Source: an uncultured Candidatus Rokubacteria bacterium (GTDB lineage: Bacteria; Methylomirabilota; Methylomirabilia; Rokubacteriales; CSP1-6). Taken from it: a DNA stretch of 64,000 bases. The position numbers and the translations under genes were made by a program. Location: contig CAVWFS010000015.1 in assembly GCA_963754315.1 (NCBI GenBank), positions 86,207-150,206 on the forward strand, written 5' to 3'. A model generated the notes under the pieces. That model made no database searches and was not told where the DNA came from. It saw only the letters and a list, made by a program, of their open reading frames with translations. Shown piece after piece: positions 5,921-48,901 of this stretch (positions are counted from its first letter, which is position 1; each line of letters begins with the position of its first letter).

Positions 5921-6678
5921 CCCTCACCGAGATCGCCCAGAGCCTTCAAAGCTCCCTTTCGCTCACCTGGTCACCGGTGGCGATAGCCCTCACCGATTCG
6001 GCTCCGGCTGGCGTCCCCGCCTTCAGCGGCAAGGTGGCCGCCGGCTGCCGCTTCTGGCAGGAAGCCGCCACCCGGACGTTCGTGACCGCGCCACGTGACC
6101 ATGACCTGTGCGCGATCGGGACTTTCACCCATAACCTCGAGGTGAGTGCCGCCCACGAGACCGACCGGCGGGACGCGCTTCACGTTTTCGCCGACCTCGG
6201 CTACGTGCGCCCGGAGGATATCCCCAACATTCCCGTACTCGCCCGGCGACCGGCCTTCGTGGTGTACGGACCCCTCGCCGATTCGCCGCTGCCACCCGAC
6301 GTCGTGCTGCTCTTCGTTCGTGCCGACCAGACGCTCATCCTGTCCGAAGCCTCACAGTCCCTGGAAGGCGGCCTCCCGCCGGCCATGGGCCGTCCGGCCT
6401 GCGCGATCATCCCTCAGGTCAAGAATACCGGCCGTGCGGCCCTGAGCCTGGGCTGCTGCGGAGCGCGGGCCTACCTCGACATCCTCACCGACGACGTGGC
6501 GCTCTACGCGATTCCCGGACCTAGCCTCGAGGCCTTTGCGCTACGGGTCACCGAGCTGGCCAAGGCCAACCAGACCCTGAGCATCTTCCATCGCATCCGG
6601 CGGAAGGACGTGGAGGGCGGGAAGACCCCCACGATCAAGGAATCACTGGCGGCCATGGCCACTGGCGGCGGAGGCTGA
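5917..6678 (+). CDS. DUF169 family protein (uncharacterised)
   Basis: MTLTEIAQSLQSSLSLTWSPVAIALTD... matches the DUF169/COG2043 architecture. Its ATG overlaps the TGA of the ATP-grasp gene (ATGA), indicating translational coupling. Confidence 0.7.
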   Translation: MTLTEIAQSLQSSLSLTWSPVAIALTDSAPAGVPAFSGKVAAGCRFWQEAATRTFVTAPRDHDLCAIGTFTHNLEVSAAHETDRRDALHVFADLGYVRPEDIPNIPVLARRPAFVVYGPLADSPLPPDVVLLFVRADQTLILSEASQSLEGGLPPAMGRPACAIIPQVKNTGRAALSLGCCGARAYLDILTDDVALYAIPGPSLEAFALRVTELAKANQTLSIFHRIRRKDVEGGKTPTIKESLAAMATGGGG

Positions 6679-22606: not shown

Positions 22607-23356
22607 CTAGACCAGGCGTGCGCGCAGACGGGAGCTGATGCCGTCGACGACGACCACCATCATCACGGTGACCAGCAGCACGGTGGCCGCCGCCGCGTAG
22701 TCGATCATCCTGAGATACGTCTGCAGGTAGAAGCCAATCCCACCGGCGCCGACGAAGCCGAGGACCGTCGCCGCCCGGATGTTCGTCTCGAATCGATAGA
22801 GCACATACGACATGAACAGGGGTAGCACCTGGGGCAACACGCCAAAGCGCAAGAGCTGCAGCCGCGTGGCACCGGTGGCGGTGATCGCGTCCACGGGCCC
22901 TGGATCGATGCCCTCGATGGCCTCGGAGTAGAGCTTGGCGAGCGAGGTGGTGGTATAGGCCACCACGGCGAGAACTCCGGGAAAGGGACCAAGACCGACC
23001 GCCGCCACGAAGAGCAACGCATAGACCAGCGTGTCGACGCTGCGTAGCACGTTGAGAACGGCGCGCATCCCGTGAAAGAGTGGCGGCGGAGCCACGTTGC
23101 GCGCGGCGAGGAACCCCAGGGGGAGCGCGAGGACGGCCGCGACGGCAGTGCCCAAGAGGGCGATCTCGACCGTCGTGAGGGCGCCGGCAAGGGCAGCGGG
23201 CAGCACACTCAAATCCGGAGGGAGCATGCGCCGGAGGAAATCGAGCATCCAGGGGATTCCCCGCGCGAGCCGCGCGGGATCGGCGCCAGTATCCCAGGCC
23301 GTCCAGATCAGCACGGCCGCTCCCACGACGAGGGTGACGGCTTGCCCGCGCCTCAC
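22607..23356 (-). CDS. phnE: phosphonate ABC transporter permease PhnE
   Basis: 249-aa permease with the EAA-like region. Its start overlaps the phnC stop (ATGA). Confidence 0.8.
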   Translation of the reverse strand: MRRGQAVTLVVGAAVLIWTAWDTGADPARLARGIPWMLDFLRRMLPPDLSVLPAALAGALTTVEIALLGTAVAAVLALPLGFLAARNVAPPPLFHGMRAVLNVLRSVDTLVYALLFVAAVGLGPFPGVLAVVAYTTTSLAKLYSEAIEGIDPGPVDAITATGATRLQLLRFGVLPQVLPLFMSYVLYRFETNIRAATVLGFVGAGGIGFYLQTYLRMIDYAAAATVLLVTVMMVVVVDGISSRLRARLV

Positions 23357-24099
23357 GAGGAACGCTCGTCGCCGTAGATCGCCTGCGCGACCTCGGGAGT
23401 CACGGCCGCAGGCGGCCCGTCGAACCCGACACGTCCGGCGCGGAAACCCACGATGCGGCTCGCGTACGCGCGCGCGGTCTCGAGCTGGTGCTGACTCACG
23501 ACCAGGGTGAGACCTCGTTCGACGTTGATGCGGCGCAGGATGTCCATGATCGTCGCGGTGAGCTGGGGATCGAGGCTCGCCGTCGGCTCGTCGGCCAGGA
23601 TCACGCCAGGGCGCTGGGCGAGCGCACGGGCAATGGCCACCCGTTGCTGCTCGCCGCCGGACAGGGTGTCAGCGCGACGCCCGGCGAGCTCCGCCAGCCC
23701 GACCTGCGCCAGGCACTCCTCGGCCAGATCCCGATCCCGTCGCGGAAAGCGGCCGACCAGGCTCGACCACGTGGGAAGATAGCCGAGGCGACCAGCCAGC
23801 ACGTTGTCCAGTACCGACGCCCGGCGAACCAGATTGAACTGCTGAAAGATCATGCCGATGTGCCGGCGCACTTCGCGCAAGGCCGCGGCGTCGGCTCCGG
23901 TGACCGGCCGCCCGGCAACACGGATCGTGCCCGAGGTCGGCTCCACCAGCCGGTTGATGGACCGCAGAAAGGTCGTCTTGCCGGCCCCGCTGCGCCCGAT
24001 GATCATCACGAACTCGCCCGGTCTGACCCTGAGATCGACGTCGGCGAGGGCAACCGTGCTGGGTGGGCGTACCACCGTGAGCCCCTCCACCTCGATCAT
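23353..24099 (-). CDS. phnC: phosphonate ABC transporter ATP-binding protein PhnC
   Basis: [10 protein letters not shown]...GRSGAGKTT (Walker A), [15 protein letters not shown] (signature), VILADEP (Walker B). The track ORF start at 24456 is an extension. Confidence 0.85.
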
Positions 24100-24163
24100 C
24101 ACGGCTGACGGCTGCCGGCCCCGCCGCGCCCTCGGCGTAGCGGTTCTCCGAGGTGGCGCGGTC

Positions 24164-25048
24164 TCAGCGGGGTCGCACGCCGAGCAGGTCGACGGCGGCA
24201 CGGACAGGGCCGTAGTCACCGTCGTCTGCTGGCTCGAAACCGTCGATATCGTAGAGTCGCTTGAGCAGCGGCGCGTACTCCGGTCCGTGCATCCGCAGGA
24301 GGGCGGACCGCACCTTGGCCACCACCGTCGGGTCGAGACCCGCGCGAGCGCAAATCCCGCTCTCCGGGATGGGTGGGCTCTCGGCGATCCACACGATGCG
24401 CTCGCGTTCGACGGGATCCTTGATGTATTGCTCGCGGGCCAGATCGAACGAGGCAAGCGAGTCCACGTGACCGTTCAGGAGCGCCCGCATGCCAGCATCG
24501 TGCGAACCCGCGAAGACAACCTCGCGAAAGAACGTCTTGGGATCGCGATTCTGGACCAGTCCGCGCTGCATGAGGAGCACCATCGGATAGATGTACCCCG
24601 ATGAGCTGGCCGGATCGATGAACGCGATCGTCCGCCCTCGCAGCGCCTCCAGGGTGGCGAGCCCGGAGTCCTTCCGTACGTAGATCCGCGAGGTGAAGGT
24701 CGTCTTGCCGTGCCAGCGGTTTCTGACCACGATCATGGCCTTCGCCTCGCGATTGGCCAGGACGTAGCCGACCGGATGTGCGAAGGCCAGGTCGGCTGTC
24801 CCGTTTCTGAGCGCCTCCACCACGGCCGCGTAGTCGGCGGCCACCGTCACCCGCACCGGCATGTCCACCAGTTTGCCGAGCTTCTCCGCGAACTCCTGGC
24901 CCGTGGCCAGCAAGTCGGTGGGCTTTTGCGAGGGCGTGAGGACAAGATGAAGCGGCTTCTGGGCTTCCAGACGCGGTGTCCCGGCGAGCAGGACGAGGAC
25001 CGCCGCCGACAACCACACGGACACACGTTTCGCCATGACGAGGATCAT
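24164..25048 (-). CDS. phnD: phosphonate ABC transporter substrate-binding protein PhnD
   Basis: MILVMAKRVSVWLSAAVLVLLAGTPRLEAQ is the signal peptide, followed by a PhnD-like periplasmic binding fold. The ATG at 25046-25048 overlaps the methyltransferase stop (ATGA). Confidence 0.8.
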   Translation of the reverse strand: MILVMAKRVSVWLSAAVLVLLAGTPRLEAQKPLHLVLTPSQKPTDLLATGQEFAEKLGKLVDMPVRVTVAADYAAVVEALRNGTADLAFAHPVGYVLANREAKAMIVVRNRWHGKTTFTSRIYVRKDSGLATLEALRGRTIAFIDPASSSGYIYPMVLLMQRGLVQNRDPKTFFREVVFAGSHDAGMRALLNGHVDSLASFDLAREQYIKDPVERERIVWIAESPPIPESGICARAGLDPTVVAKVRSALLRMHGPEYAPLLKRLYDIDGFEPADDGDYGPVRAAVDLLGVRPR

Positions 25049-25891
25049 GCTACCGCATTCGGCTGACTGTGTCGGCGACCGACCGTCATGATGTGCGCCC
25101 CCACGCCGAGCATGGACGGCTCGCGCTCGACGGCACGCGCGGCCATCAGCAGGTGCTGGCGCCATCCGGGATCTGCCCAGCGCTGCGCGACATCGGCCAG
25201 GACCCATCCCGGCCCCTCGATGCCGACCGTCTCGACGATCTCGAAGCCGCCTTCGGCGACCTCGCGCTCCAGCTCCTCCGGGCGATGGAAGAACGATGTG
25301 GTGAAGTAGTCGCGCGGGGTCGGGTTGCGATGCTGGCCGCTCCGGAGATCCTCTTCCACGATGCGGGCGGCAGTCGGATCCTCGAGGAGGCCCTCGAAGA
25401 GCCCGTCGAGGAGGGAAGCAAACCGGGAAACCCCGACCGCGAAGAGAAGCCCGCCCGGCCTCAGCACGCGCCAGGCCTCGCGGAGGGCGCGTATGCGGTC
25501 CGTCCGCTCCGTCAGGTGATAGAGCGGTCCCATCAGGAGCACGGCGTCGGCGCTTGTGTCAGGTGACATCGAGGTGCCGGGCGTCGCCGAGCCTGACGCT
25601 GGCCAGGGGATGGTCGGGCTGGTTGGCGGATGCCCGGCGCGCCTGCTCGACGTGGAGCGGCGAGGCGTCGAGGAGGTGCACGGTGTGGCCCCGCGCTGCC
25701 AGCCAGCATGCATAGGCGCCGGGCCCACCGCCCACGTCCAGAATATCCTGAGGTAAAGCGGGCAAGTGGCGGAGCAACAACTCGCGCGTGCGCTCGGCTT
25801 CCAGCGGGCCGTGGCCGAGCGACAGGCGCTGCTCCTCCCGCCCCTGCCCGTAGTAGGCGAGGATCTCCGGCGGGACGCGGGGAACACTCAT
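25045..25891 (-). CDS. class I SAM-dependent methyltransferase, split by a single-base frameshift near 25565
   Basis: The N-terminal part is in ORF 25559..25891 (...DVGGGPGAYACWLAARGHTVHLLDASPLHVEQAR...RLGDARHLDVT*). The C-terminal part is in 25045..25887 (...PDTSADAVLLMGPLYHLTE...). Restoring one C in accctgac gives the continuous DVTPDTSADAV. The start overlaps the upstream kinase stop. Confidence 0.65.
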
Positions 25892-31565: not shown

Positions 31566-32771
31566 CTACACGACCCCGCGGGCGCGGAGGCCGGCGAGGT
31601 CGTCGCTCGTCAGGCCAAGCCGCCCACAATAGATCTCCTCGTTATCGCCGCCCACGGCCACCGGACCCGGGTGGTCGATGGCCCCGGGGGTCAGGCTGAG
31701 CTTCGGCACGATCCCCGCCATGTGAAGGACACCGCCGAGCGGATTGGGCACCTCCACGATGTTCTCGCGGGCCGCCACCTGGGGGTCCGCGAAAAGGTCG
31801 GCCACGCTGTTCACGAGCGAGCACGGGACCTGAGCGGCATCGAGGCGAGCCAGTGCCTCGGAGGCGTCGAAGGCCCCTACCCACTCACCCACGATTCGAT
31901 CGAGCTCGTCTCGGCGCCGGATGCGCTCAGGCATGGACGCGAATTCTGCCAGCAGCTCGGGGCGCTCCATGGCGTGCGTCACGAGTCGTTCGAACATCCG
32001 GTCGTTCGTGCACGCGATCGCAATCCAGCTCCCGTCGCGAGCGCGGTAGTGATTGTGTGGAACGACGTATTCTGTTCCCGAACCGATGCGCTCTCGTTGG
32101 TGTCCCACCGCCCCGTAGACGGGGATCAGCTCATCGAGCATGCGCAGCATCGGCTCGTAGAGGGCCACGTCGACCACCTGCCCCTGCCCCGTACGCTGTC
32201 GGTGCTGGAGCGCAACGAGCGCTCCCAGCGCTCCCATCGTCCCGGCGAGGTAGTCGGGGATGGTAGGGGTCCCAGGGGTTACGGGCGGCCGATCAGGGTA
32301 CCCCGAGAGATAGCTCACTCCACTCACGGCGGCGGCGATACGGCCGAAGCCGGGACGCGCGCGGGCTGGCCCCGTCTGGCCAAAGGCAGAGATGCGCACC
32401 ATGACGAGCCCAGGGTTGACCGCGCACAGATCCTCCCAGCCAAGGCACCAACCCTCCATCGTGCCCGGGCGAAAGTTCTCGGCGAGAATGTCCGTCTGGG
32501 TGGCCAGGCGCTTCATGAGGGCCTGGCCTTCGGGCGCGCGGAGGTTACAGGTGATGGACTTCTTGTTGCGCGACTCGACCAACCACATGTAGGCGGGCCC
32601 CGGGCCGGCTCCGCGCCCGAGGCGCCGCAGGTCATCGCCGATGCCGGGCTGTTCGACCTTGATGACCTCAGCCCCGAATTCGCCAAGCAACGTACAGCAG
32701 AATGGCGCCGCGATGAACGTGGCCAGGTCGAGGACACGTACACCCGTCAGGGCACGCGCGTTGGCGCTCAT
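31566..32771 (-). CDS. CoA-transferase family III (CaiB/BaiF-like)
   Basis: MSANARALTGVRVLDLATFIAAPFCCTLLGEFGAEVIKVEQP...DILAENFRPGTME. Typical length, 401 aa. Confidence 0.85.
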   Translation of the reverse strand: MSANARALTGVRVLDLATFIAAPFCCTLLGEFGAEVIKVEQPGIGDDLRRLGRGAGPGPAYMWLVESRNKKSITCNLRAPEGQALMKRLATQTDILAENFRPGTMEGWCLGWEDLCAVNPGLVMVRISAFGQTGPARARPGFGRIAAAVSGVSYLSGYPDRPPVTPGTPTIPDYLAGTMGALGALVALQHRQRTGQGQVVDVALYEPMLRMLDELIPVYGAVGHQRERIGSGTEYVVPHNHYRARDGSWIAIACTNDRMFERLVTHAMERPELLAEFASMPERIRRRDELDRIVGEWVGAFDASEALARLDAAQVPCSLVNSVADLFADPQVAARENIVEVPNPLGGVLHMAGIVPKLSLTPGAIDHPGPVAVGGDNEEIYCGRLGLTSDDLAGLRARGVV

Positions 32772-32789
32772 AGCAGGCCGCGCCTGGCG

Positions 32790-35313
32790 CTACTCCTGCC
32801 TGAGCACGGGCAACGGCTTCTCGCCGAGCAGCCGGAAGGTCGCCAGGAATCCCACCAGGAGCGCAACGGCCGCAGTGAGGGTGACGCCGACGACAAGCGC
32901 CTCCGGCTCGAACGTCCACGGGACCTCGAGAAGGTAGCGCAAGACCACCCACGAGAGCGCCATGGCCAGGGCGCTTCCGCCCAGGCCCGCCGCCACCCCC
33001 ACACAGGCGTACTCGACCGCGAAGATGCGCGCCACCACGCCCCGGGTGGCCCCGAGCGTTCGCCAGATCACCGACTCGCGCAAGCGCGTGTAACGACTCG
33101 CCGTGAGGGCCGAAATCATGACCACCAGACCGGCGCCGATGCTGAAGAGCGCCATCATCCGAATGGCCACGGCCATCTGATCGAGCACGGTCGCCACTCG
33201 CTCGAGCACGTCGCGCACGGGTATGGCCGTCACGTTGGGAAACGCGGTCACGACGGCGCCCTGGACGCGAGTCTCGTTGGCCGCAGGGACTCGGCTCGTC
33301 GCGACGAACGTGCCCGGCGCACCATCGAGGGCGCCCGGCGAGAGAATCATGAAAAAGTTGGTGGACAGCGTCTGCCAGTCGACCTTCCGAGTGCTCGTCA
33401 CCTCCGCCTCGACCGGCACGCCTTGCACCTCGAAGGTGAGGCGGTCGCCCACACCGATTCCGAGCTGCCTGGCCACGGCCTCCTCGACCGAGACGAGGGG
33501 CCGCGTCCAGTCGGTCGGGGCGCCACCAGTGCCCGCGGACGAGCACGTTGGCAGGAGGAAGATCGGCGGCGTAGGTCAGGACATACTCGCGGCGGAGATA
33601 CCAGGAGCCCTCGCTGTTCGGGCCGCCGCGCCGAGCATCGATCATGGCGCGGGTTACGGGCTGACCGTTGATGGCCGCCAGGCGCGAGCGCACCACGGGC
33701 GTGAGCACGGGGAGGGCGCCTCCTGCGGCCTCGGCTGCCACCCGCACGAACTCCTCGCGTTGATCGGGCTGTATATCGATGAAGAAGAACGACGGAGCCT
33801 CCCGCCGCTGCTCGTGATCGATCTGGCGGCCAAGGCTTGCCTCGAGCAACGCTACCGACACCAGCAGCATCACTCCGACTCCGAGCGCGATGACGATGCC
33901 CTCCGTCTGTGACCCGGGACGCGCGAGGTTGGCCACACCCTGCCGCCAGGCCAGCCCGCTCAAGCGCGGCCGCTGGCGCGCCGCCAGCGCCACCAAACGG
34001 GCCAGGCTCACCAGGAGCAGGAGTGCCGCTACCGAAGCGCCCACGAAGATCCCACCGAGCTTCCATGATCCGGCCTGCCAGAAGGCCAGCGCGACCAGGC
34101 CAAGCGCGATGGGCACGGCCGCGGCCGATGGTCTCCGCTTGGAGGCAGGATCGACCTCGTGACGCAGGAGAAGGGAGGGTCGTACCGTCCGGATGGCGAG
34201 CAAGGGCCAGAGGGCGCAAAGAAGTGCTGTCAAGACTCCCATCGCGAACGCTCGCCCGATGGTCAGCAGGTCCGGCCGCGACGATACCTCGATGGGCAGG
34301 ATGCCGGTCAGGACACCCACGACGATCGATTGCAAGGCCACGCCGAGAACGACTCCCGCCACGCTGGCGGCGACCGCCACGATCTGAGTCTGCAGGAGGT
34401 AGCCCGTCAGGAGCACTCGCGAGCTGGCCCCGAGAACTTTCAATATGGCGATCGTCGGACGCTGACGCCTCATGAACGTTGCCACGGCCGAGGCCACGCC
34501 GATGCCGCCGACCAGGAGGCTGACGAGCCCGATCAGACCAAGGTACGTCGCCATCTGGGAGAAGAAACGCCGCAGCCCAGGCTGCGCCTCGTTGAAGGAC
34601 GTCACCCTGATGGTCGGGTCCGAGATTTCGCGCGCGATGGCCTCCCGGCTCTCGCGCGCCGCCATTCTATCGGGCAAGCGAAGCAGGGTTCGGTAGCGTA
34701 CACGGCTCCCGAACTGGAGGAGCCCTGTGCCTTCGAGTGTCTGGCCGCTGATCAGCACGCGCGGTCCCAGCCCGAAGCCCACCGGGCTGTCCGGCTCCTT
34801 ACGCACAACGCCTCGGATGGTCACCGTCCCGTTGCCGACCAGGATACGGTCACCGACTCTCATGTCGAGCCGCGCCAGCAACGTCTCGTGCACGAGAGCA
34901 CCACCGTCGGCGAGCAGCTCTGCCAGTGGACGTTCGGGCTCGGTCTGCATGCGGCCGTACAGGGGATAGTCTGGCTCCACCGCTTTCAGCTCGACCAGCA
35001 GGGAACCCCCAGCACGAGGATCGCGGACCATCCCGACGAGCTCCCGCACACGGGTCACGGCAGCTCCGGCCGAGGCAACCCGCTCCACGGCCTGTGTTGC
35101 CTCGTCCCCAAGGGGACGCATGGCCCGAAGCTCGAGGTCCCCACCCATGAGCGTCCTGGCCTCACGGGTCAGAGCGCGGTCAACGTTGGCGGCAAGCGTG
35201 CCGACCGAGGCCAGCGCCGCCACCCCGACGGCGACGCAGGCGAAAAAGCCAACGAAGTGGCGCCACCCGCCCCGCATCTCGCGCAGGGCTATTAAGATGG
35301 GGGGCCCCGACAT
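32790..35313 (-). CDS. ABC transporter permease with two FtsX domains (YbbP-like), split by a frameshift near 33525
   Basis: The N-terminal part is in ORF 32668..35448 up to ...VLVRGHWWRP. The C-terminal part is in 32790..33476 (...QLGIGVGDRLTFEVQGVPVEAEV... second FtsX domain). The junction lies in gcgccccgacc. Removing one C gives the continuous HWWRPTDWTRPLVSVEEAVARQLGIG. The N-terminus is tentatively MSGPPILIALREMRGG at 35313, inside the repeat. Confidence 0.75.
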
Positions 35314-35478
35314 GGCCCCCCATACCCCCCAACGCTCGGGGCGCCCCGGGACACCCGGGTCACCCCTCGACATGACGCCAGCTTCTGGGGCCCCGATATG
35401 GCCCCCATACCCCCCAGCGCTCGGGGCGCCCCGGGATACCCGGGTCACCCCTCGACATGACGCCAGCCTCTTAACGTG
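35297..35478. repeat. about 2 copies of the same GC-rich about 84-bp repeat family, between the ABC ATPase and its permease
   Basis: Unit is GGGGCCCCGACATGGCCCCCATACCCCCCAACGCTCGGGGCGCCCCGGGACACCCGGGTCACCCCTCGACATGACGCCAGC. It aligns block for block with the 29055 unit (...CGCTCGGG.CG.CCCGGG.A.CCCG.G.C.CCCCTCG...). The second copy starts at about 35388. Confidence 0.7.
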
Positions 35479-36927: not shown

Positions 36928-37584
36928 GTGGCCGTTTGGCTTCCCCTGCTCGCGCTCGTTATCACAAGCGCTGCGTGCAGCACGTTCCCGGAGGGCGCGT
37001 ACCATCCCTTGGCACGCGATCCGCATGCCACCGCTGTGGCACGATCGCTCCACCGCGCAGCGCTGGCCGCTGACGACGACCCCAAACGCTACACGTTCGC
37101 CATGATCCAGACGCGGGACATCGCCGCCTATACCACGGACGATGCGTCGTTCTACTTCACCGACGGGCTCGCCCGCCTACCCGCACCGAGCCTAGACGCG
37201 CTCGTCGCGCAGCAGGTCGCGCACGAGATTCTCGGCCACCTCGGGCGGCGCCGCGCCCTCTCCCTCTCGATGGCGGCGGGATTCACGGTCTTCGGCTTCA
37301 TCGTACCCGGGATGGGACTGGTCGACTACCTCGTGAGCCCGCTCGTGGTGCGCGCGTACACGCGGGATCAGGTCCTCGCGGCCGATGGCAAGGCGGTGGA
37401 GATTCTCTCTTCAATGGGCTATCGGGCGCCCCGACGCGTGATGGCTGATGCGATCCGGACGGCCACCGCCCACCGTCCCGCTCAGGGAGGGGTGTTGGAT
37501 ACGGAGCCCAGTTCCGATGATCGCCTGACGGCCCTGGAGCCGCTGGAGTCCGTCTCGCGGAAAGCGGGGCCCCGCGCGCGCTGA
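36928..37584 (+). CDS. lipoprotein with HExxH zinc-metallopeptidase motif (M48-like)
   Basis: Lipobox LLALVITSAAC; QVAHEILGHLGRRR (HExxH); AADGKAVEILSSMGY resembles the M48 C-terminal region. Start GTG 36928. Confidence 0.6.
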   Translation: MAVWLPLLALVITSAACSTFPEGAYHPLARDPHATAVARSLHRAALAADDDPKRYTFAMIQTRDIAAYTTDDASFYFTDGLARLPAPSLDALVAQQVAHEILGHLGRRRALSLSMAAGFTVFGFIVPGMGLVDYLVSPLVVRAYTRDQVLAADGKAVEILSSMGYRAPRRVMADAIRTATAHRPAQGGVLDTEPSSDDRLTALEPLESVSRKAGPRAR

Positions 37585-37600
37585 AACGAGACCGAATCTC

Positions 37601-40225
37601 TCAGCGAGAACTATAGATCCGACGATACTCGTCCCAGGATAGCATGACACGCTTGACATAGTGGCGCGTCTCGTCGAACGGGATCTCCTCGACCCAGACT
37701 TCGATGTCGTCGTTGCGGCGCGCTTGCCACCACTGGCGTGCCCGCCGGGGACCGGCATTGTACGCGGCCAGTGCGAGCCGGGGATCGGTGAATTCCCGCA
37801 GGAGCTGCCCGAGGAAGCTCGTCCCGAGCTCGATGTTGGCCGCCGGCTCGTCGAGCAGGTCGCCCCCTCGGAAAGACCAGCCTCGCCCCGCCACCATGGG
37901 CTGGGCGGTGCTCGGCATGAGCTGCATGAGCCCGCGTGCCCCCGCTCGCGATACCGCGGCCGGATGGTAGCTCGACTCCTCACGAACCACCGCGGCCACG
38001 AGGCACGGATCGAGTCCCACGCGCTCGGCGGACTCTGTCACCTCCACACGCCAAGGCCACGGATAGAGGAGCTCCCAGAACGCGCGTGGAATTGCCGGGT
38101 GCCCGCTCGTGGCGAGCCCGGCGAAGTTTCTCCGCATGACTCGCAGTGCCAGGTGATGGCGCTCACCATCGACGTAGGCTCGGCTGAGCCCGTAGAGTCG
38201 AACGGTGTCGCCCGCCGAGCGCTGTACGACATCCGCGAGCTCGACGAGAGCCAGCTCGCCAAGGCCGACCCGGCGGAGCAGCTCGACGCGCTCGAAGCCC
38301 GGGTCGCCGGCGACGGCGTCTCGCGGGTTGGCAGGCAGACGCAAAGACGGTTCAGGGGGATCGTGAACGGCCGCTCGTGAGCCTGCCAGGCGGCGCTCGG
38401 CCAAGAGCCCGTAATAGCTGCGGGGCGCCTCGCTGATGACGCGCTGATACGCTCGCTGGGCCGGCTCGCGCGCGCCCAGCTGGTCCTTGGCACGTCCAGT
38501 CCAGTACAGCGCGGCTAACCGGTGAGCACGACTACCCGGCATCTCGGTGAGATGCGTCCAGCTCAGCGCCGCCGCACTCACGTCGCCACGGACGTAGGAC
38601 AGCCAGCCCAGGCGCCAGAGAGCATTCGCGCTCGCCTCGCGGGCAGGAAAGCGCCGGACCAACGCGCGATAGGAGTCCTCGGCGAGCGACTCGCGGCGCC
38701 GATCCTCGAAGAGGCGCGCTTGCAGATACATGGCCTCCGCCGCCTCGGCGTCTGGCCCCGTCCCGATCACCACGGTCAGGACCTTGTGCGCGCCATCCTT
38801 GTTACCGCTCCGGCTGAGAAGCCGGGCCTGTTCGAGCTGGAGTGCACTTTTCTGTTCGACGGGAGCCCGCGCCACGGCCGACTCGATGGCACGCACAGCC
38901 GCATCGTAACGACCGAGCCGCTGCGAAGCGTCCGCGGCGAGCTTGAGCGCGCGCACGACGATGCTGACATCCTGAGCATCGGCGGCGAGGCGGTCAGCCT
39001 CGTCTGCCGCGGCCTGGGGCACACCTCCGCGAAGCAGACGGTCCGCGCGATCAAGGCGTTGCTGGGGCGACAGCGGCGCGATGCGGACACCCCCGCGGGC
39101 GAGCGCGGACAGACGGTCTCCGGCGGCCGAGGCGTACGCCCCGGCCGGGGCGATCAGAGTAAGCTCGCGATAGGCCGCCGCCGCTGACTCGAGCTGCCCT
39201 CGTCCTTCGGCCGTCATGCCCAGCAGGTACAAGGCCTCCGGCACCTCCTCGGCATCGGGATAGTCGGCGATCAGCTTCACGATCGCCTCCTGGGCTCCCG
39301 CCTCGTCGCCGGCGCGCGAGCTTGCCCATGCCGCCACCAGCAGTGCGCGGGGTGCCAGCCGGCTATCGCGATGGTGCGTCGCCACGCTCAGCGCCAATTC
39401 ACGTGACGCGGTCCAGTTCTCGCGTCGTGCGAAGGCATCGGCGAGCAGCCACCGCACGTAGTCTGCGATGGGGCTGGCCAGCGCAGCTGGCGCATTGACT
39501 TGGTCGAGAAGCGGGCTCATATCACCCGCCTGGTAGGCGGCGATCGCCTGGGCCCACGTCCGTTCCTGCGCCGCCATCACCGGCGGGTCGGCCGCGCTCG
39601 CGGTCGGGCTGAGGAGGACCGTCGCGATCAGCACGCAGCGGGGGATGGCCGCCGGGCGGGTCGCGCGCCAGGTGAAGGCGATGCGCTGAAGCGCGGTGAG
39701 ATTGGCGAGGACAGCCAGAACCCACAGGGCCGGTTCCAGCACGTCCAGCAGGGCACCCAGGATCAGGCAGATCATCCGCTCGGGGCGCTCCATGAATCCG
39801 ATCGTACACTCGACCCCAATCGACGATGCCCGGGCCTTCGTGTAGCTGACCATCACCGATCCCACCAGACCGGCCATGGCCACCAGGGCCCCGCGCGTGT
39901 GTGGTGTGCGGGCGAACAGGACGACGATGGCGAGAAGCACCACGATGTCCGAGTAGCGATCGATCACCGAGTCCAAAAAGGCCCCGAATGGCGTCACCAT
40001 CCCGGAGGCACGGGCCAGGGAGCCGTCGAAGAAGTCGCAGAGACCCGCGATCACGAGGAGTACTCCCCCCGTCCGGATGTGGCCGGTCACGATGGCGGCA
40101 GCCGCCACCAAGCTGACGCCAAGCCCGATGAGCGTGAGGTGATTCGGTCGGAGGTGCAGGCGGACGAGGCTCCGCCCGACAGGGTCCGACCAGACGCGAG
40201 CCGTCTCGCGGTAACGACTGATCAT
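37601..40225 (-). CDS. 874-aa ORF: N-terminal CDP-alcohol phosphatidyltransferase (PgsA-like) membrane domain fused in frame to TPR repeats and a C-terminal SLT lytic transglycosylase domain
   Basis: N-terminus MISRYRETARVW...DFFDGSLARASGMVTPFGAFLDSVIDRYSD (DG-x2-AR-x8-G-x3-D-x3-D). There is no in-frame stop before CVLIATVLLSPTASAADPP (signal-peptide-like) ... C-terminal ESSYHPAAVSRAGARGLMQLMPSTA...AYNAGP (SLT). The start is 4 nt after the glnD stop. Confidence 0.7.
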   Translation of the reverse strand: MISRYRETARVWSDPVGRSLVRLHLRPNHLTLIGLGVSLVAAAAIVTGHIRTGGVLLVIAGLCDFFDGSLARASGMVTPFGAFLDSVIDRYSDIVVLLAIVVLFARTPHTRGALVAMAGLVGSVMVSYTKARASSIGVECTIGFMERPERMICLILGALLDVLEPALWVLAVLANLTALQRIAFTWRATRPAAIPRCVLIATVLLSPTASAADPPVMAAQERTWAQAIAAYQAGDMSPLLDQVNAPAALASPIADYVRWLLADAFARRENWTASRELALSVATHHRDSRLAPRALLVAAWASSRAGDEAGAQEAIVKLIADYPDAEEVPEALYLLGMTAEGRGQLESAAAAYRELTLIAPAGAYASAAGDRLSALARGGVRIAPLSPQQRLDRADRLLRGGVPQAAADEADRLAADAQDVSIVVRALKLAADASQRLGRYDAAVRAIESAVARAPVEQKSALQLEQARLLSRSGNKDGAHKVLTVVIGTGPDAEAAEAMYLQARLFEDRRRESLAEDSYRALVRRFPAREASANALWRLGWLSYVRGDVSAAALSWTHLTEMPGSRAHRLAALYWTGRAKDQLGAREPAQRAYQRVISEAPRSYYGLLAERRLAGSRAAVHDPPEPSLRLPANPRDAVAGDPGFERVELLRRVGLGELALVELADVVQRSAGDTVRLYGLSRAYVDGERHHLALRVMRRNFAGLATSGHPAIPRAFWELLYPWPWRVEVTESAERVGLDPCLVAAVVREESSYHPAAVSRAGARGLMQLMPSTAQPMVAGRGWSFRGGDLLDEPAANIELGTSFLGQLLREFTDPRLALAAYNAGPRRARQWWQARRNDDIEVWVEEIPFDETRHYVKRVMLSWDEYRRIYSSR

Positions 40226-40229
40226 GTGC

Positions 40230-42911
40230 TCAGAGGGGCCGCGCCAACGCGTCGCGCAGCGACGCGCGAATCCGCTCGACGACCCCGGTGTCTTCGATCT
40301 TCTGCCCCTGACCGTTGGTCACATAGAAGGTATCGACCGCCTTGTCGATCTCGGTGGCGATGCGCGCACTGGTGATATCGAGACCGAGGGCGGCCAGGGT
40401 AGCCGTGATCAGGTAGAGGAGACCCACCCGATCGGGACACTTCACTTCCACGACGGTGGCGACGTCGGACAGCTGGTTATCGACGACTATGCGGGGCGGG
40501 CCCGCCACGGTCGTGGGCTCTCCCTGCGCAGGGCGCCGGCTTTCCAGCAAGGTCTCCACGGTGCGGTCACCCGCGATCACGGCACGAAGGGCGTCCAGGG
40601 TCCGCGTCCAGCGCGCCGCCGCGGAGAGGGGTTCGCCCATAGGATCGTTCACCTGAAGGGTATCAATGGCAACGCCGTCCGCCCGGGTGTGAATCTGGGC
40701 GGAGATGATGTTGACCCGGTTGGCGGCCAGGGTCCCCGTGATGAGGGAGAAGAGACCGGACACGTCCCGCGCCACCACCACCAGGTCGGAGGAACCGAGG
40801 TCAGGGTGGTGGAACAGCTCGGTCACCACCGGTTGCTCCTCCAGACGCCGCAGCATGGCCAGATGCTCGGCCATGCGTTGCACACTGGTCGTCGTCAGAT
40901 AGCGATCGGAAACCATGGCCACGTGCGCCCGCACCGCTTGCCGGGGCACGTCGTCGCCCGCGTGCGCCTGGAGCCGCTCCACGAGCTGTTGGCGCGCCGG
41001 CCCTTGCTGGTGCCCGCCCGTGAGCTGGGCCAAGGTCCGCGCGAACAGCTCGTGGAGGATCTTCGCCTGCCAGCCAGTGAGCACACCTGGGCCCACGGCG
41101 CGCATGTCGGCGTAGGTCAGGAGATAGAGCATACGCAGACGCTGGGGGGTCTCGGCAATGGCCGCGAAGTTGGAGATGGTGCGGGGATCGTCGATGTCAC
41201 GCCGCTGAGCCACGTGGGACATACTGAGGTGATGGGCAACCAGGAATTCGACGAGGCTCGCTTCCTCCGTGGGAAGGTCGAGACGCGTGGTGAGTTGCCG
41301 CACAAGGGGGATTCCCTTGGCGACGTGCCCATGCCCCTTGGCCTTGCCGATGTCGTGCAGCAGCATGCCCAGCATGAGTAACTCGGGCTTCTCCACCTCA
41401 TGAAAGACGAGGGCTGCTCCCTCCGATTCCGCCGACTGCCCGGGGGCCAGCGCTTCCAGATGCTGCACGGCCAGGAGTGAGTGCTGGTCGGCCGAGAACT
41501 TGTGGTAGACGTCGTACTGCACGAGACAGGTGAGGGCCCCGAACTCGGGAAGGTAACGCCCGAGCACACCCAACTCGTGCATTTCGGAGAGCGTCTCGCC
41601 AATCCGCCCCCACCGCCGACAGATGTCGAGGAAGACGTCCCGCACACGAGGGTCCTGCTGCACACGCTCGTCGATCGCCTCGACGGCTTCCTCGATCGCC
41701 CGCTCGAGGTCCGGAGACAGCGTGCACCCCAGCCGATGCATGTGCCAGAAGACCTTCATGAGCCGAGCGGGCTCGGCCGTCAGATCCCTCGGATCGCGAT
41801 CGGCCAGATGCAGAGCGCCGTCCAGGAAAACGAGGCCATCGGCGAGGGCCTGTTGGCGCTGGCGCCGCCCGGCCCCCCCCCGTTGCGCGAGCGTGTCCTG
41901 GCAACGCGCGATCAGACGGCGCGACAACCGGTGGATCGTCCGCGCGTGAAGGTAATAATCGCGCATGAAACGCTCGACCCCCAGGCTCTGCTCGGTATCC
42001 TCGTAACCACCAAAGGCCTTGGCGATTTGCGGCTGCAGGTCCCGGGACAGCACGTCGTTCTTGTGGCCGGCCAGGAAGTGAAGCTCGTTGCGTACGCGCC
42101 AGAGAAAGGTCAGGGCGGCGTCGGTGGCGGCCCGCTCGCCAGGGGTGATGAGACCCTTGTCGGCCAGCTCGCGCAGGGTGCGGGCGCCGAACTTGGCCGA
42201 GCTCAGCCACATGGCGGTGTGCATGTCGCGCAACCCGCCCGCCGACTCCTTGACGTTCGGCTCGCCAATATAGGGCGAGGCGCCGAACTTGCGGTAGCGC
42301 TGGTCGCGCTCGGTCAGGGTCGTGGCCAGGAACTCGCCAAAATCGCGGCGAAAGAGGCTTTCGCGGAGATCGTGGCGGAAACGGTTGAAGAGCCGGCGAC
42401 TGCCCGCGACGAGGCGAGCTGCCTGCATGGAGGTGAGGCTCGGGAAGTCCGTGCGCGCGATGGCCACGCAATCGTCCAGGGAGCGCAGGCTATGGCCGAT
42501 CTGCAGCGACAGGTCCCACAGGGTGTAGAGCAGCTCCTGGGTGACGCGGTGAACGTAGGGCGTGCGCTCTCCCTCGTACACGACCATGAGGTCGATGTCC
42601 GAGGAGGGGTGTAGCTCCCCGCGTCCGTAGCCGCCCAGGGCCGCCACCACCAGCGGAGCCGGCGCCAGGCCAGCCGCCGCCGCGTCGGACGCGATCAGCC
42701 GGGTGAGGGCCCTGATGATCGCGTCGATGAACTCGGCGTGCGCGCGGACGGATTCCCCTCCCGACGCGCCCTCAGCATGCTTGAGCTTGAGAGACTCCAG
42801 CCCCTCAGCGAGGGCGGCGCGGAAAAATTCGAGTCGCAGACGGCGCCGATCGTCGGTGCGTTCGGCCTTAGCCTCGGCACGTCGGGCCCGGCGGAACAGC
42901 TCGGGCGGCAT
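40230..42911 (-). CDS. glnD: [protein-PII] uridylyltransferase/uridylyl-removing enzyme GlnD
   Basis: About 890 aa with nucleotidyltransferase, HD (HDIGK) and two C-terminal ACT domains. Start is taken at ATG 42911 (MPPELF...). Confidence 0.85.
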   Translation of the reverse strand: MPPELFRRARRAEAKAERTDDRRRLRLEFFRAALAEGLESLKLKHAEGASGGESVRAHAEFIDAIIRALTRLIASDAAAAGLAPAPLVVAALGGYGRGELHPSSDIDLMVVYEGERTPYVHRVTQELLYTLWDLSLQIGHSLRSLDDCVAIARTDFPSLTSMQAARLVAGSRRLFNRFRHDLRESLFRRDFGEFLATTLTERDQRYRKFGASPYIGEPNVKESAGGLRDMHTAMWLSSAKFGARTLRELADKGLITPGERAATDAALTFLWRVRNELHFLAGHKNDVLSRDLQPQIAKAFGGYEDTEQSLGVERFMRDYYLHARTIHRLSRRLIARCQDTLAQRGGAGRRQRQQALADGLVFLDGALHLADRDPRDLTAEPARLMKVFWHMHRLGCTLSPDLERAIEEAVEAIDERVQQDPRVRDVFLDICRRWGRIGETLSEMHELGVLGRYLPEFGALTCLVQYDVYHKFSADQHSLLAVQHLEALAPGQSAESEGAALVFHEVEKPELLMLGMLLHDIGKAKGHGHVAKGIPLVRQLTTRLDLPTEEASLVEFLVAHHLSMSHVAQRRDIDDPRTISNFAAIAETPQRLRMLYLLTYADMRAVGPGVLTGWQAKILHELFARTLAQLTGGHQQGPARQQLVERLQAHAGDDVPRQAVRAHVAMVSDRYLTTTSVQRMAEHLAMLRRLEEQPVVTELFHHPDLGSSDLVVVARDVSGLFSLITGTLAANRVNIISAQIHTRADGVAIDTLQVNDPMGEPLSAAARWTRTLDALRAVIAGDRTVETLLESRRPAQGEPTTVAGPPRIVVDNQLSDVATVVEVKCPDRVGLLYLITATLAALGLDITSARIATEIDKAVDTFYVTNGQGQKIEDTGVVERIRASLRDALARPL

Positions 42912-47198: not shown

Positions 47199-48591
47199 CT
47201 AGTCCGGGAGCGGTCGGCCGCGTGTCTCCGGTCCGGCGAATGGCGTGACGATGAGCCCGATGAGATAGACGGCGCTCATCATGACGGCGGCGCGCGCGAT
47301 ACCCCCCAGGGACTCCGCGAGCCATCCGGCGACGAGAGGACCGAGGGCGGCCACGTAGCGCGCGCTATTGAATACCACGGCCGTGCCGGTACCACGCACC
47401 GCGGTGGGATAGACCTCGGGCGGATACATGACCAGCCATGCGAACTGGCCGGTGGTGAAGAACCCGTTTACCGCGACCGCGAAGAGGAAGAGAGGGAGGC
47501 TCTTCTGCACCAGGAAGGGAGCACCGGCGGCGACCAGCGAGCCGGCAAAGAAGAAAGCGAAGGATCGCTTGCGGCCCCAAGCATCGGCCATGCTCCCCAG
47601 GCAGAGATACCCCGCGATCCCTCCTGCGCTCCATAGCAGCCCCGCCCGGGCCCCCCAGCCATCCGGCCCCAGCCCAGCTCGGGTGGCCACCTGGGTCGCG
47701 TACTGTGGAATCCACGTGGACACCGCCCAGTAGCCGACGATGGTGGAGAGCGCCATCATCAGGAGCAAGAGCGTTCGCCTCCTGAGCTCGTGGCTGGCGA
47801 AGAGGTCCACCACCGTGAAGCGCGTCAGGCGGCGCTCCTCCTCGCTCAGGCGACGCCCCTCCAGCGCCGCCCGACGGGCAGCTTGCCGTCGGCGATCGGC
47901 GGCGATCCACACCGCGGGATCGGCAACACCCCGACGCATCCACAGCAAGAGGAGCGCGGGGAGCACTCCGATCACGAACAGGTATCGCCAGGACCCATGC
48001 CCCAGGGGTTCGATCAGGAACCAGAGGCCAGCGGCGAGCAAGGTTCCGATGCCGAAGGCCGAGGCAAGGACCCCCGCTGCTCTGCCCCGCCGCGCCGGGG
48101 GCCACAGCTCGCCGACCAGGGCGGCCCCTGGACAGAATTCTCCTCCCAGCCCCAAACCGGTCAAAAAGCGGAAACCGAGCAACATCCAGTAGGTCTGTGC
48201 CAGCGCGCTCATCCCTGTGAACACCGCATAGCAGAGAACCGACAGCATGAGCATGCGGCGCCGCCCCAGATAGTCGGCGAGCACCCCACCCACGAGCCCT
48301 CCGGTGGCCCATCCGACGAGCGTTACCCCGATGAGGCCTCCGAAGTAGAGTGGACTCTGGGCACGCTTGGTCGGGCGGCAGGAGGTCGCCGATGGCCACC
48401 GCTCCGACCAGGATCAGGGCGTATGTCTCGTATCCGTCAAATAGCCAGCCGAATGCGGCAGCCAGCAGCGCACGCCACGCGGCCGGATCGAGCGGGCGAG
48501 AAGCCTTCCGGTCGAAGGCAGGCGCCGGCGAGCCCTCGGCTGCCTTCGTGGCGGTCATCGTGCCCCGATTGTAGACTGTCACTATGGCCAA
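47199..48591 (-). CDS. MFS transporter, split by a frameshift near 48345-48380
   Basis: The N-terminal part is in ORF 47365..48591 (...AAFGWLFDGYETYALILVGAVAIGDLLPP). The C-terminal part is in 47199..48293, whose frame upstream also reads ...QSPLYFGGLIGVTLVGWATGGLVGGVLADYLGRRRM (MFS motif A). Confidence 0.65.
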
Positions 48592-48901
48592 GCGAGGTAA
48601 GGTTATTCCCTTTCCCGGATCCCGGCCCGTGCTGCCGGAGCCTGGTGTCGAGCGCGAGCTGGCAGAAGTCCACCGGTGCCATCATGCAGAGGCAATCGTC
48701 GTGCGGAGCCTGTTCGAGAGCGAGGGGATCCCGACCTTGTTACGCTCTCGGCTCCTCGCGTCGGTTCACCCTTTCAACGTCGGCGATCAGGGAGAGGTGG
48801 TGGTGCTCGTCCCCACGCGCGAGGTCGCCCATTGCCGCGTGCTCCTCGAGATGGGGATCATTCGCTGGCCCGACTTCGCCCCTAGCCCATCTCGGCGATA
48901 A
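48584..48901 (+). CDS. DUF2007-like small protein (putative signal-transducing protein fold)
   Basis: ...AEAIVVRSLFESEGIPTLLRSRLLASVHPFNVGDQGEVVVLVPTREVAHCRVLLE matches the DUF2007 pattern. Confidence 0.5.
   Translation: MAKRGKVIPFPGSRPVLPEPGVERELAEVHRCHHAEAIVVRSLFESEGIPTLLRSRLLASVHPFNVGDQGEVVVLVPTREVAHCRVLLEMGIIRWPDFAPSPSRR

Follow-up and report, generated by a model that had tools for sequence, protein, structure and literature searches.

The window, the whole 64,000-nucleotide stretch analysed here, carries on its minus strand a single open reading frame (ORF) in which a phosphatidylinositol-phosphate synthase (PIPS)-type domain is followed by an internal signal-like segment and then by a Slt70-type lytic transglycosylase. 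An earlier note, made from the letters of this DNA, had described it as one ORF joining a CDP-alcohol phosphatidyltransferase to TPR repeats and an SLT domain, and the ORF listing and a Pfam search both bore this out. As that note had read, the frame runs without a stop into a signal-peptide-like stretch (...FTWRATRPAAIPR-CVLIATVLLSPTASAA-DPP...), and the ORF begins 4 nt from the stop codon of glnD (TGA 40232-40230, spacer 'gcac', ATG 40225). The features of the locus are as follows.

40230..42911, minus strand: glnD (PII uridylyltransferase), the upstream gene of the apparent operon (tblastn; Pfam on orthologues)
37601..40225, minus strand: complete fusion ORF, 874 aa plus stop, ATG start (ORF listing)
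39662..40225, minus strand: predicted PIPS domain, aa 1-188 (Pfam PF01066, NCBIfam, PDB 6h53/6h5a, AF2 model against 6h59)
39959..40036, minus strand: CDP-alcohol signature D64xxD67G68xxA71R72x8G81xxxD85xxxD89 (read from the sequence)
39590..39667, minus strand: junction, aa 187-212, the former Slt signal peptide (sequence, homologues, unfused Slt of L081 and L084, AF2)
38066..39574, minus strand: superhelical TPR-like alpha-solenoid, about aa 218-720, corresponding to the U and L domains of Slt70
37604..38050, minus strand: SLT catalytic (goose-lysozyme-like) domain, about aa 726-874 (Pfam PF01464, PDB 6fbt/1qsa)

Identity of the two halves

The N-terminal domain is predicted to be of the phosphatidylinositol-phosphate synthase type, like M. 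tuberculosis PgsA1. Pfam CDP-OH_P_transf matched aa 26-168 (E 1.7e-15, 58 bits against a cutoff of 22), and the PgsA1 structures 6h53/6h5a were matched by sequence at E 4e-22. In the AF2 model of the fusion protein (mean pLDDT 87) this domain consists of an N-terminal juxtamembrane helix and six transmembrane (TM) helices (residues 2-22, 29-46, 50-74, 79-105, 110-135, 147-159 and 163-188; pLDDT mostly 80-93), and Foldseek superposed it on 6h59_A/B with TMt 0.80-0.82 and rmsd 2.0-3.6 Å. The six-TM fold, the complete DxxDGxxARx8GxxxDxxxD signature and the residues of the inositol-phosphate pocket are shared with PgsA1 (6h53/6h59), with the PIPS of M. kansasii and R. salmoninarum (6wm5, 5d91) and with archaeal AIP synthase. 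Identity to PgsA1 is nevertheless about 34%, and the best NCBIfam families, NF040950 (AIP synthase; 166.4 bits, cutoff 180) and NF045883 (PIPSynth; 128.5 bits, cutoff 170), scored below their equivalog cutoffs, neither of which the window domain reached; we therefore filed it as PIPS-like, with a predicted substrate. The label 'PgsA-like' used in the earlier note did not hold, as the best matches were AIP/PIP synthases and PgsA1. Phosphatidylglycerophosphate synthase (PgsA) was rejected, since TIGR00560 gave 32.6 bits against a cutoff of 109.1 and NF008090 gave 26.4 against 304, while the PDB entry for PgsA, 7drj, was matched only at E 2.7e-4 over 54 residues, compared with 4e-22 for PgsA1.

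The CDP-OH motif that the note had pointed out is present in full (D64-x2-D67-G68-x2-A71-R72-x8-G81-x3-D85-x3-D89). It comprises the metal and catalytic aspartates, lies on TM2-TM3 and is followed directly by R90, the equivalent of PgsA1 R94; D64, D67, G68, A71, R72, G81, D85 and D89 are invariant in 120/120 homologues. In PgsA1 the inositol-phosphate pocket is formed by R94, S132, K135, R137, R152, R155 and R195 (PMC6506517). Alignment to 6h5a placed R90, S127, K130, R132, R147, R150 and R181 of the window protein at these sites, all of them invariant in the same 120 homologues except K130, which is Lys in 111 and Arg in 9. By homology R181 (PgsA1 R195) stands where TM6 ends and belongs to the substrate pocket on the cytoplasmic side. 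Again by homology, the domain would use a CDP-activated lipid and inositol-1-phosphate to make phosphatidylinositol phosphate on that side of the membrane. A search of the window and of about 1 Mb of related Rokubacteria loci turned up no inositol-1-phosphate synthase (MIPS) gene, so that the lipid product is a prediction from homology.

This negative search, together with the missed equivalog cutoffs, might suggest that the PIPS domain has decayed into a mere membrane anchor or export platform for Slt. We consider this highly improbable. All eight signature and all seven pocket residues are kept among the 120 homologues, the replacement of K130 by Arg in nine of them being conservative, and no part of the fusion protein is better conserved than the PIPS domain (at least 70% identity across the clade). 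Furthermore, an Inos-1-P_synth gene directly follows the PIPS gene of a close unfused relative (P0273 in L086, 46% identical).

The C-terminal 660 aa are predicted to be a complete exolytic lytic transglycosylase of the Slt70 type (family 1A). Pfam placed TPR-type repeats (TPR_6, TPR_8, TPR_16) between about aa 270 and 610 and SLT at aa 731-843 (E 2e-27); PF27553 (SLT_superhelical) is precomputed on orthologues, and the modelled solenoid (aa 218-720) is all-helical with pLDDT above 90. Both SLT motifs claimed in the note (ES and AYNAGP) were found, as the catalytic E750 (nt 37976-37978) with S751 and as AYNAGP821-826, together with GLMQLMP765-771; E750/S751 are invariant in 120/120 homologues, and GLMQLMP and AYNAGP invariant or nearly so. 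Among PDB sequences this half matched 6fbt (E 9e-26) and 1qsa (E 2e-21), and Foldseek aligned it with 6fbt, 5ohu and 1qte at TMt 0.55-0.58 (675-682 columns; E 2e-13 to 3e-10, and 2e-13 to 1e-11 for 6fbt and 1qte). With E. coli Slt70 (1qsa/1qte), P. aeruginosa Slt (5ohu/6fbt) and Neisseria LtgA (5o1j) it shares the solenoid, the goose-lysozyme-like SLT domain and the Glu-Ser, GLMQ and AYNAGP motifs (sequence E 1e-25, structural match over about 675 columns), although at no more than 20-23% identity and with a loose overall superposition (rmsd about 9 Å). From these homologies we infer the enzymatic activities of both halves.

Conservation and origin of the fusion

The earlier note had left two alternatives, a genuine fusion or two genes whose boundary stop codon was lost, and had thought the latter plausible in view of indels elsewhere in the window. 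A homologue search returned full-length matches of 861-1042 aa carrying both PF01066 and PF01464 in all of the best 120 clusters, far more than chance would give. Uninterrupted fusions were found in more than 120 protein clusters (57-100% identity) and in 64 of 80 species-level Rokubacteria/Methylomirabilota genomes; eight more read through the junction before the contig ended and two more carried a later frameshift, so that the junction is read through in 74 of the 80. A search with the PIPS domain returned the fused type at 70% identity or above and then dropped to unfused proteins of about 200-250 aa at 49% or below. Within the fused clade, which spans at least 64 species-level genomes and reaches down to about 57% identity, no reversion was seen. 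Indels at the junction were always multiples of three, and the catalytic residues of both halves were intact across the best 120 clusters. This recurrence, the frame-preserving indels and the invariant catalytic centres support a genuine fusion and suggest that both enzymes are under selection. The ORF is a genuine gene fusion, fixed in a clade of Rokubacteria, an uncultured soil group (phylum Methylomirabilota); the combination of PIPS and Slt domains is previously undescribed and modestly interesting.

Frame changes do occur in two other genes of the window, a MacB/FtsX-like permease (near 33514-33518) and an MFS transporter (near 48367-48374), and two distant relatives have separate genes; both points count for the idea that an erroneous base or indel erased a stop and joined pips to slt in the window. 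However, the fusion gene itself is untouched by such changes, the alignment to the L001 orthologue running in one frame over residues 1-874 at 86.7% identity. An identical protein (P0001, 100% identity) is present in an independent ENA assembly, and the same continuous ORF recurs in hundreds of independent assemblies (JGI, ENA, NCBI, Logan), besides the 74 genomes with a continuous junction. Nor does the window lineage offer a start codon from which a separate Slt could be made: the position of the relic Met discussed below is Thr189, and the sole in-frame GTG (V198) would leave a signal peptide without an n-region and has no Shine-Dalgarno-like sequence upstream. An assembly or sequencing artefact is thus effectively refuted, its probability being very small. 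A tryptic peptide across the junction of the window protein would be CVLIATVLLSPTASAADPPVMAAQER.

As an evolutionary event, on the other hand, the loss of a stop codon stood. The note had asked whether relatives have a stop at the junction. Two basal Rokubacteria do have separate genes with a stop and a start there; the 64 genomes above are fused. In Rokubacteria CSP1-6 (L084) the PIPS stop is followed by a 20-nt spacer and then by GTG-RSFASALVIGLLLTLSGPAAVA|GPADGE, the two genes lying in different frames, and in Rokuibacteriota AR9 (L081) the genes are in frame and 3 nt apart (...MVD-TGA-GCG-ATG-PSRIRRASWAWIVLVLATARGGGA...). In both, the unfused Slt has its own start codon and, by sequence, a normal N-terminal Sec signal peptide. 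The fused forms were monophyletic in the tree (bootstrap 90/100), with L084 and L081 branching below them, and separate pips and slt genes were shown to be the ancestral state. As all fused forms fall into one clade, the stop codon was lost only once in evolution. The loss occurred between adjacent genes of a glnD-pips-slt operon, a short C-terminal tail of PIPS probably being lost along with the stop. In 76 of 80 species loci, both unfused ones included, the gene immediately upstream on the same strand is glnD, and the window copy aligned by tblastn to residues 1-893 of the L001 GlnD at 91.8% identity. The lineage thus preserves a series from separate frames (CSP1-6) through genes in frame and 3 nt apart (AR9) to the fused clade, and illustrates a route by which a membrane enzyme that faces the cytoplasm can become fused to a periplasmic one and remain so.

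The junction and the fate of the exported enzyme

The substrate of Slt is peptidoglycan, so the enzyme must work in the periplasm. Homology shows TM6 of the PIPS domain to end in the cytoplasm, and the junction that follows it would therefore carry the Slt module from inside to outside; we infer export through an internal signal. The junction has the anatomy of a signal peptide, with a basic n-region (R187-A-T-R-P-A-A-I-P-R196), a short hydrophobic core (C197-L205) and a c-region (S-P-T-A-S-A-A212) before D213. By position it is the homologue of the signal peptides with which the unfused Slt of L081 and L084 begin, and the n/h/c anatomy is common to the 120 homologues although the sequence is poorly conserved. 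At least two Lys or Arg stand in the n-region in 119/120, the hydrophobic core has a median of 10 residues (strictly hydrophobic, 8-12 in most members), and the uncharged span (median 20 residues, mode 16) contains a Pro in 112/120 and is closed by an acidic residue in 110/120. The plain -3/-1 rule is non-discriminating in these Ala-rich proteins, as every TM helix passes it too. A composite c-region pattern (Pro or Gly upstream, small residues at -3/-1, Asp or Glu within +3) was met by 78/120 junctions, compared with 0-23/120 for each of TM1-6. In the AF2 model, residues 189-213 have pLDDT below 50 and are not modelled as a helix packed against the PIPS bundle.

The ancestral slt start might still be in use, in which case translation of Slt would begin within the junction, the protein would have a normal N-terminal signal peptide and the long fusion would be a by-product. 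A relic Met does stand at +1/+2 after R187, just before the n-region, in 46/120 fusions (e.g. ...FTRRAMRDAAIVPLAVAAL...), far above the Met background of 1.8%. Met is absent from this position in the other 74, among them the window protein and its 17 closest relatives (ATR...), no stop follows PIPS so that ribosomes must read on, and the sole candidate in the window, the GTG mentioned above, has no Shine-Dalgarno-like motif upstream. Internal initiation could work in a subset of lineages at best, and as a general account it is very unlikely.

Instead, the junction would act as an internal start-transfer signal that threads the Slt module across the membrane, and the gene would probably encode a two-enzyme polyprotein. 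Signal peptidase I would cut after the small-x-small c-region (at about A211 or A212, before D213), giving a soluble periplasmic Slt and a PIPS with a short hydrophobic tail. Because the junction resembles a cleavable signal peptide, the halves may separate after export, and the anchoring of a murein hydrolase by a phospholipid-synthesis enzyme, as the note had envisaged, is unproven.

On the other reading, which is possible and to us the less persuasive, the junction would be a seventh TM helix and an active PIP synthase would tether Slt permanently to the outer face of the cytoplasmic membrane. Glycan cleavage would then be confined to membrane-proximal (nascent) peptidoglycan, or coupled spatially or stoichiometrically to inositol-lipid synthesis. 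Several observations count for such a tether or against cleavage. The median uncharged span of 20 residues is of bilayer length and would suffice for a TM helix in many homologues. In a few lineages (P0066, P0092, P0116) the hydrophobic segment leads into a long Pro/Ser/Ala-rich linker of 76-176 residues. Such linkers are frequent in tethered periplasmic proteins and would suit a permanent tether reaching for the wall. Were the halves cut apart, persistence of the fusion would need no function, and the absence of reversion across the clade is then hard to explain. The adjacency of pips and slt is older than the fusion, and the conserved synteny with glnD hints at a functional link; PIPS relatives also adjoin wall-remodelling genes, namely ftsEX, an M23 peptidase and a CtpB-like protease in L005, and again a CtpB-like protease in L086. 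Against a tether, however, the core is only 8-12 residues long in most members and nearly always interrupted by Pro, the small-residue c-region with its acidic residue is just that of the cleavable signal peptides of the unfused ancestors, and the segment evolves as fast as a signal peptide and shows no packing on the PIPS bundle. Moreover, most members reach the first conserved Slt helix over a linker with a median length of only 13.5 residues, which would press the 70-kDa ring flat against the membrane, at a distance from the sacculus.

A fuller version of the tethered reading, in which an uncleaved seven-TM bifunctional enzyme would couple strand turnover to the site of inositol-lipid or glycolipid-anchor synthesis, co-transcribed with GlnD, is rather doubtful. 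Clearance of nascent, uncrosslinked glycans would be one example of such turnover. GlnD is a nitrogen sensor, and if the junction is uncleaved, conservation of the glnD-pips-slt operon would be a hint that nitrogen status is connected with envelope lipids and wall turnover. In that case we know of no earlier instance of a lytic transglycosylase anchored by a phospholipid-synthesis enzyme.

Comparison with known systems and implications

Unlike mycobacterial PIPS, the fused form lacks pimA or acyltransferase neighbours, and it continues C-terminally into a periplasmic enzyme, its own substrate and product being predicted here. Members of the Slt70 family are separate secreted proteins with an N-terminal signal peptide, whereas here the signal is internal and follows a polytopic enzyme of 190 aa. 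The nearest parallel to the favoured, cleaved reading is FbcH of Bradyrhizobium japonicum, the cytochrome b-c1 precursor, which according to Thony-Meyer et al. in 1991 is reportedly a polyprotein split at an internal signal peptide; its products are said to be subunits of one complex and their cleavage to have been shown experimentally. Its layout, a polytopic part ending in the cytoplasm and then a tripartite n/h/c segment leading into a periplasm-facing protein in one ORF, is present in the fusion protein, which likewise derives from neighbouring genes of one operon. PIPS and Slt, in contrast to the FbcH products, have no known partnership, and cleavage is here a prediction. The fusion may be topologically tolerated because the slt signal peptide also serves for export from within the protein, and possibly as a linker that removes itself.

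An uncleaved junction would instead recall MltG, a lytic transglycosylase held at the cytoplasmic membrane, but MltG has a single TM helix, a YceG fold rather than the Slt70 ring, and an anchor without enzymatic activity. IPCT-DIPPS (4mnd) and a GT4 glycosyltransferase-PIPS protein (P0254) likewise join a PIPS-type domain to another enzyme in one polypeptide; there the partner is N-terminal, cytoplasmic and of the same pathway, whereas in the Rokubacteria it is C-terminal, periplasmic and of a different one. In public annotations these fusion proteins go under 'soluble lytic murein transglycosylase' or 'SLT domain-containing protein', with the lipid synthase overlooked. The Rokubacteria may accordingly be producers of inositol phospholipids that have so far gone unrecognised as such.

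Conservation of the fusion gene in a single reading frame

The gene fusing a phosphatidylinositol-phosphate synthase (PIPS) domain to a lytic transglycosylase (Slt) and the neighbouring or comparable genes of the window are arranged as follows.

Genes of the window discussed here
37601..40225, minus strand: fusion ORF of 874 codons, from ATG to stop
40230-42911, minus strand: glnD, upstream neighbour on the same strand
36928-37584, plus strand: convergent gene downstream of the fusion, encoding a 218-aa protein with a HEILGH motif
32668-35448, minus strand: MacB_PCD/FtsX-type ABC permease, frame change near 33514-33518
47202-48606, minus strand: MFS sugar transporter, frame change near 48367-48374

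Pfam searches of the fusion protein recovered CDP-OH_P_transf at aa 26-168 (E 1.7e-15), several TPR-type repeats at about aa 270-610 and SLT at aa 731-843 (E 2e-27). The frame leaves the lipid-synthase domain (…LTALQRIAFTWR) and reaches the repeats via ATRPAAIPR-CVLIATVLLSPTASAA-DPP with no stop in between, and the tryptic peptide spanning the junction of the window protein is CVLIATVLLSPTASAADPPVMAAQER. The span, the domains and the stop-free frame are thus as the earlier note had described them. That note had also considered that two separate genes might have been joined by loss of a boundary stop codon, given indels elsewhere in the window. Frame changes were indeed found in other window genes. 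When compared with its 841-aa orthologue from L001, the locus which carries the 87%-identical orthologue of the fusion, the permease matched in frame -2 over residues 1-601 and in frame -3 over residues 600-841, and therefore the listed 926-aa ORF ends in a nonsense Arg/Gly-rich tail; this is either an indel error or a pseudogene. Similarly, the MFS transporter is split in two frames (L001 protein residues 1-80 and 78-468), which is a second indel in the window. The fusion gene, on the other hand, aligned with its L001 orthologue in one frame over residues 1-874, so this worry does not extend to it.

Furthermore, a full-protein search yielded 503 proteins at E ≤ 1e-10, and the 120 best of these, which we used for analysis, are 57-100% identical to the window protein, 861-1042 aa long and carry both PF01066 and PF01464 in every case. 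They come from JGI, ENA, NCBI and Logan assemblies and belong to Rokubacteria/Methylomirabilota wherever named. Species-representative genomes were also scanned with the junction-spanning alignment, and in the best 80 of the 239 loci obtained, nearly all from Rokubacteria/Methylomirabilota MAGs, ORFs were re-called and scored by HMMs for the three parts.

State of the gene in the best 80 of 239 loci
64 of 80: intact fusion
8 of 80: contig end reached after the junction, within the repeat region
3 of 80: contig ends too early to tell the state
2 of 80: frameshift inside the repeat region (L007, 6890-8685; L052, 7337-7812)
1 of 80: frameshift in the linker (L083, about 4520)
2 of 80: pips and slt separate (L081 and L084)

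The three frameshifts are probably assembly indels. When the PIPS domain alone was searched against 1.84 billion representatives, the fused type appeared at ≥70% identity and, after a gap, unfused proteins followed at ≤49%, mostly of about 190-260 aa. Homologues from independent assemblies, species genomes, the PIPS-domain search and the one-frame orthologue alignment taken together exclude an artefact. Two representatives of odd length, P0125 and P0123, with the PIPS domain at 305-489 and 144-328 respectively, probably reflect start codons called wrongly or contigs with frameshifts.

The PIPS-Slt fusion is previously undescribed in the literature that we searched. Our literature search returned no paper describing a fusion of a CDP-alcohol transferase with SLT, and none relevantly tying Rokubacteria to lytic transglycosylases or inositol lipids; public annotations call the protein only an SLT-domain protein or a soluble lytic murein transglycosylase.

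Two more ORFs of the window looked odd. For the TctA ORF (19500-20747, minus strand), the match with its Pfam profile does not begin before position 73, and the ABC ATPase ORF (23353-25207, minus strand) is extended N-terminally by 136 aa, overlapping the ORF of the phosphonate-binding protein; either case may reflect another indel or a start called wrongly. Conservation of the convergent HEILGH gene beside the fusion is limited to the closest relative. The L001 orthologue of this gene matched Peptidase_M48 weakly, and the window copy had no Pfam match at 1e-5.

Identity of the two halves

The N-terminal domain had been labelled PgsA-like in the earlier note, a label which did not hold. Among NCBIfam models it scored 166 bits with archaetidylinositol-phosphate synthase and 128 bits with phosphatidylinositol-phosphate synthase, both below their own equivalog cutoffs, against 33 bits with pgsA. 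Among solved structures the top match was PgsA1, the PIPS of M. tuberculosis (6h53/6h5a, E 4e-22), along with other PIPS enzymes, while S. aureus PgsA reached only E 2.7e-4. The inositol-phosphate pocket of PgsA1 is lined by R94, S132, K135, R137, R152, R155 and R195 (PMC6506517), which in our alignment correspond to R90, S127, K130, R132, R147, R150 and R181 of the window protein. These residues, together with D64, D67, G68, A71, R72, G81, D85 and D89, are invariant in the 120 homologues, except that K130 is replaced by R in nine. The view that PIPS has decayed and serves as an anchor only is contradicted by this pattern, in which every catalytic and pocket residue is kept and the single exchange is conservative. 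The lipid product of the PIPS half may be assigned by homology with these enzymes. An unfused PIPS relative of 46% identity has an inositol-1-phosphate synthase (MIPS) gene as its immediate downstream neighbour. No MIPS gene was found within the window itself, nor in the roughly 1 Mb of related Rokubacteria loci that were searched.

The C-terminal 660 residues match the Slt70 family (P. aeruginosa Slt, E 9e-26; LtgA; E. coli Slt70, E 2e-21), and the catalytic E750-S751 and the GLMQLMP and AYNAGP motifs are conserved in the 120 homologues. The AlphaFold2 model of the fusion protein, built from 70 homologues, had a mean pLDDT of 87; its N-terminal bundle superposed with PgsA1 (TMt 0.80-0.82, rmsd 2.0-3.6 Å) and its C-terminal part aligned with Slt and Slt70 across about 675 columns.

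In another taxon, P0254 (646 aa) carries a GT4 glycosyltransferase of PimA-like architecture N-terminal to the PIPS domain in one protein, a PIPS fusion of another kind whose functional sense is more obvious. Among the nearest unfused PIPS relatives, we noticed the order ftsE-ftsX-M23 peptidase-CtpB-like S41 protease-PIPS in L005 (1444-6633) and PIPS-MIPS-tmk-CtpB-like protease in L086 (6001-10214); a CtpB-like protease is thus close to PIPS in both loci, and other wall-remodelling genes adjoin.

Origin from adjacent genes

The ATG of the fusion, at 40225, is separated from the glnD stop (TGA, 40232-40230) by four bases (gcac). Directly upstream on the same strand, glnD is present in 76 of the 80 loci with gaps of a few bases only (window, L006-L085), and since these include both unfused loci, glnD-pips-slt is the ancestral gene order. 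The nitrogen-sensor gene glnD shares an apparent conserved operon with envelope enzymes.

Separate pips and slt genes of basal Rokubacteria
L081 (Rokuibacteriota AR9), 6300-6620: PIPS ends …SMVD-TGA; three bases (GCG); Slt follows in the same frame as ATG-PSRIRRASWAWIVLVLATARGGGA-AP…
L084 (Rokubacteria CSP1-6), 6300-6650: PIPS ends …RRQPVA-stop; 20 nt; Slt follows in another frame as GTG-RSFASALVIGLLLTLSGPAAVA-GPADGE…

Judged by sequence, the unfused Slt proteins of both loci have ordinary predicted N-terminal Sec signal peptides. We placed the PIPS domains in a neighbour-joining tree with unfused outgroups as the root; L084 branches first and L081 next, and the fused genes form a single clade (bootstrap 90/100; 99/100 for all Rokubacterial sequences together). 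The AR9 arrangement is one step short of fusion. As the fused genes, by the alignment, lack the C-terminal tail which PIPS has when unfused, a short deletion probably removed this tail along with the stop and the spacer.

Met occurs one or two residues past the invariant R187 in 46 of the 120 fused proteins (Met background 1.8%), and the single column two residues past R187 (homologues P0019-P0120) holds Met in 32 of 120. It may be a relic of the slt start or an internal start still used in those lineages. By internal initiation, Slt could be made on its own in no more than the 38% of lineages which retain Met; the window has Thr189 at the old slt position, and an internal start was rejected there, since Met is absent and the sole GTG has neither an n-region nor a Shine-Dalgarno sequence.

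The junction and the fate of the Slt half

Going by its homologue PgsA1, TM6 should have its C-terminal end, with the pocket arginine R181, on the cytoplasmic side, and the next hydrophobic segment would therefore cross from inside to outside, placing the Slt module entirely in the periplasm, the site of its substrate. That the fusion is genuine and conserved and that its Slt half is exported, taken jointly, we hold to be almost certain. Two well-known enzyme families are thus fused throughout a clade; the evolutionary origin of the fusion is clear, and its design makes sense topologically.

Across the 120 homologues the junction segment (aa 187-212) is poorly conserved in sequence and constant in anatomy: at least two K/R precede it in 119, its strictly hydrophobic core has a median of 10 residues, Pro lies within the uncharged span in 112 and an acidic residue closes this span in 110. 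The plain von Heijne -3/-1 small-residue rule was satisfied by 119 of 120 junctions but also by all six true TM helices, because these proteins are Ala-rich, and it was dropped as cleavage evidence without weight. Hydrophobic-run length likewise did not separate the junction from the TM helices. Only a composite criterion told them apart, requiring P/G upstream, small residues at both -3 and -1 and D/E no further than +3. It holds for 78 of the 120 junctions, and for any one TM helix in 0-23 of 120. In the AlphaFold model residues 189-213 have pLDDT < 50 and form no helix packing on the PIPS bundle. A lipobox reading of the Cys in some junctions was discarded, as this residue is not conserved and L-[AS]-[GA]-C does not occur there.

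We propose that the junction is the retained Slt signal peptide, which would serve as an internal start-transfer signal and would still be a site of cleavage by signal peptidase I, at about A211/A212, from which Slt would be set free in soluble form. In Bradyrhizobium, the cytochrome b-c1 precursor FbcH offers a parallel to such cleavage. Fusion, export and cleavage together make up a model which we favour with modest confidence. A permanently tethered, uncleaved bifunctional enzyme appears rather unlikely to us; it would be a membrane-tethered lytic transglycosylase coupled with inositol-lipid synthesis. The stability of the fusion throughout the clade, an uncharged span of at least 20 residues in half of the members and a pips-slt adjacency older than the fusion are consistent with it, as are Pro-rich linkers of 76-176 residues past the segment in a few lineages. 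These linkers, in P0066, P0092 and P0116, are Pro/Ser/Ala-rich low-complexity inserts which follow the signal-like segment and precede the first conserved helix of Slt, and may be tethers.
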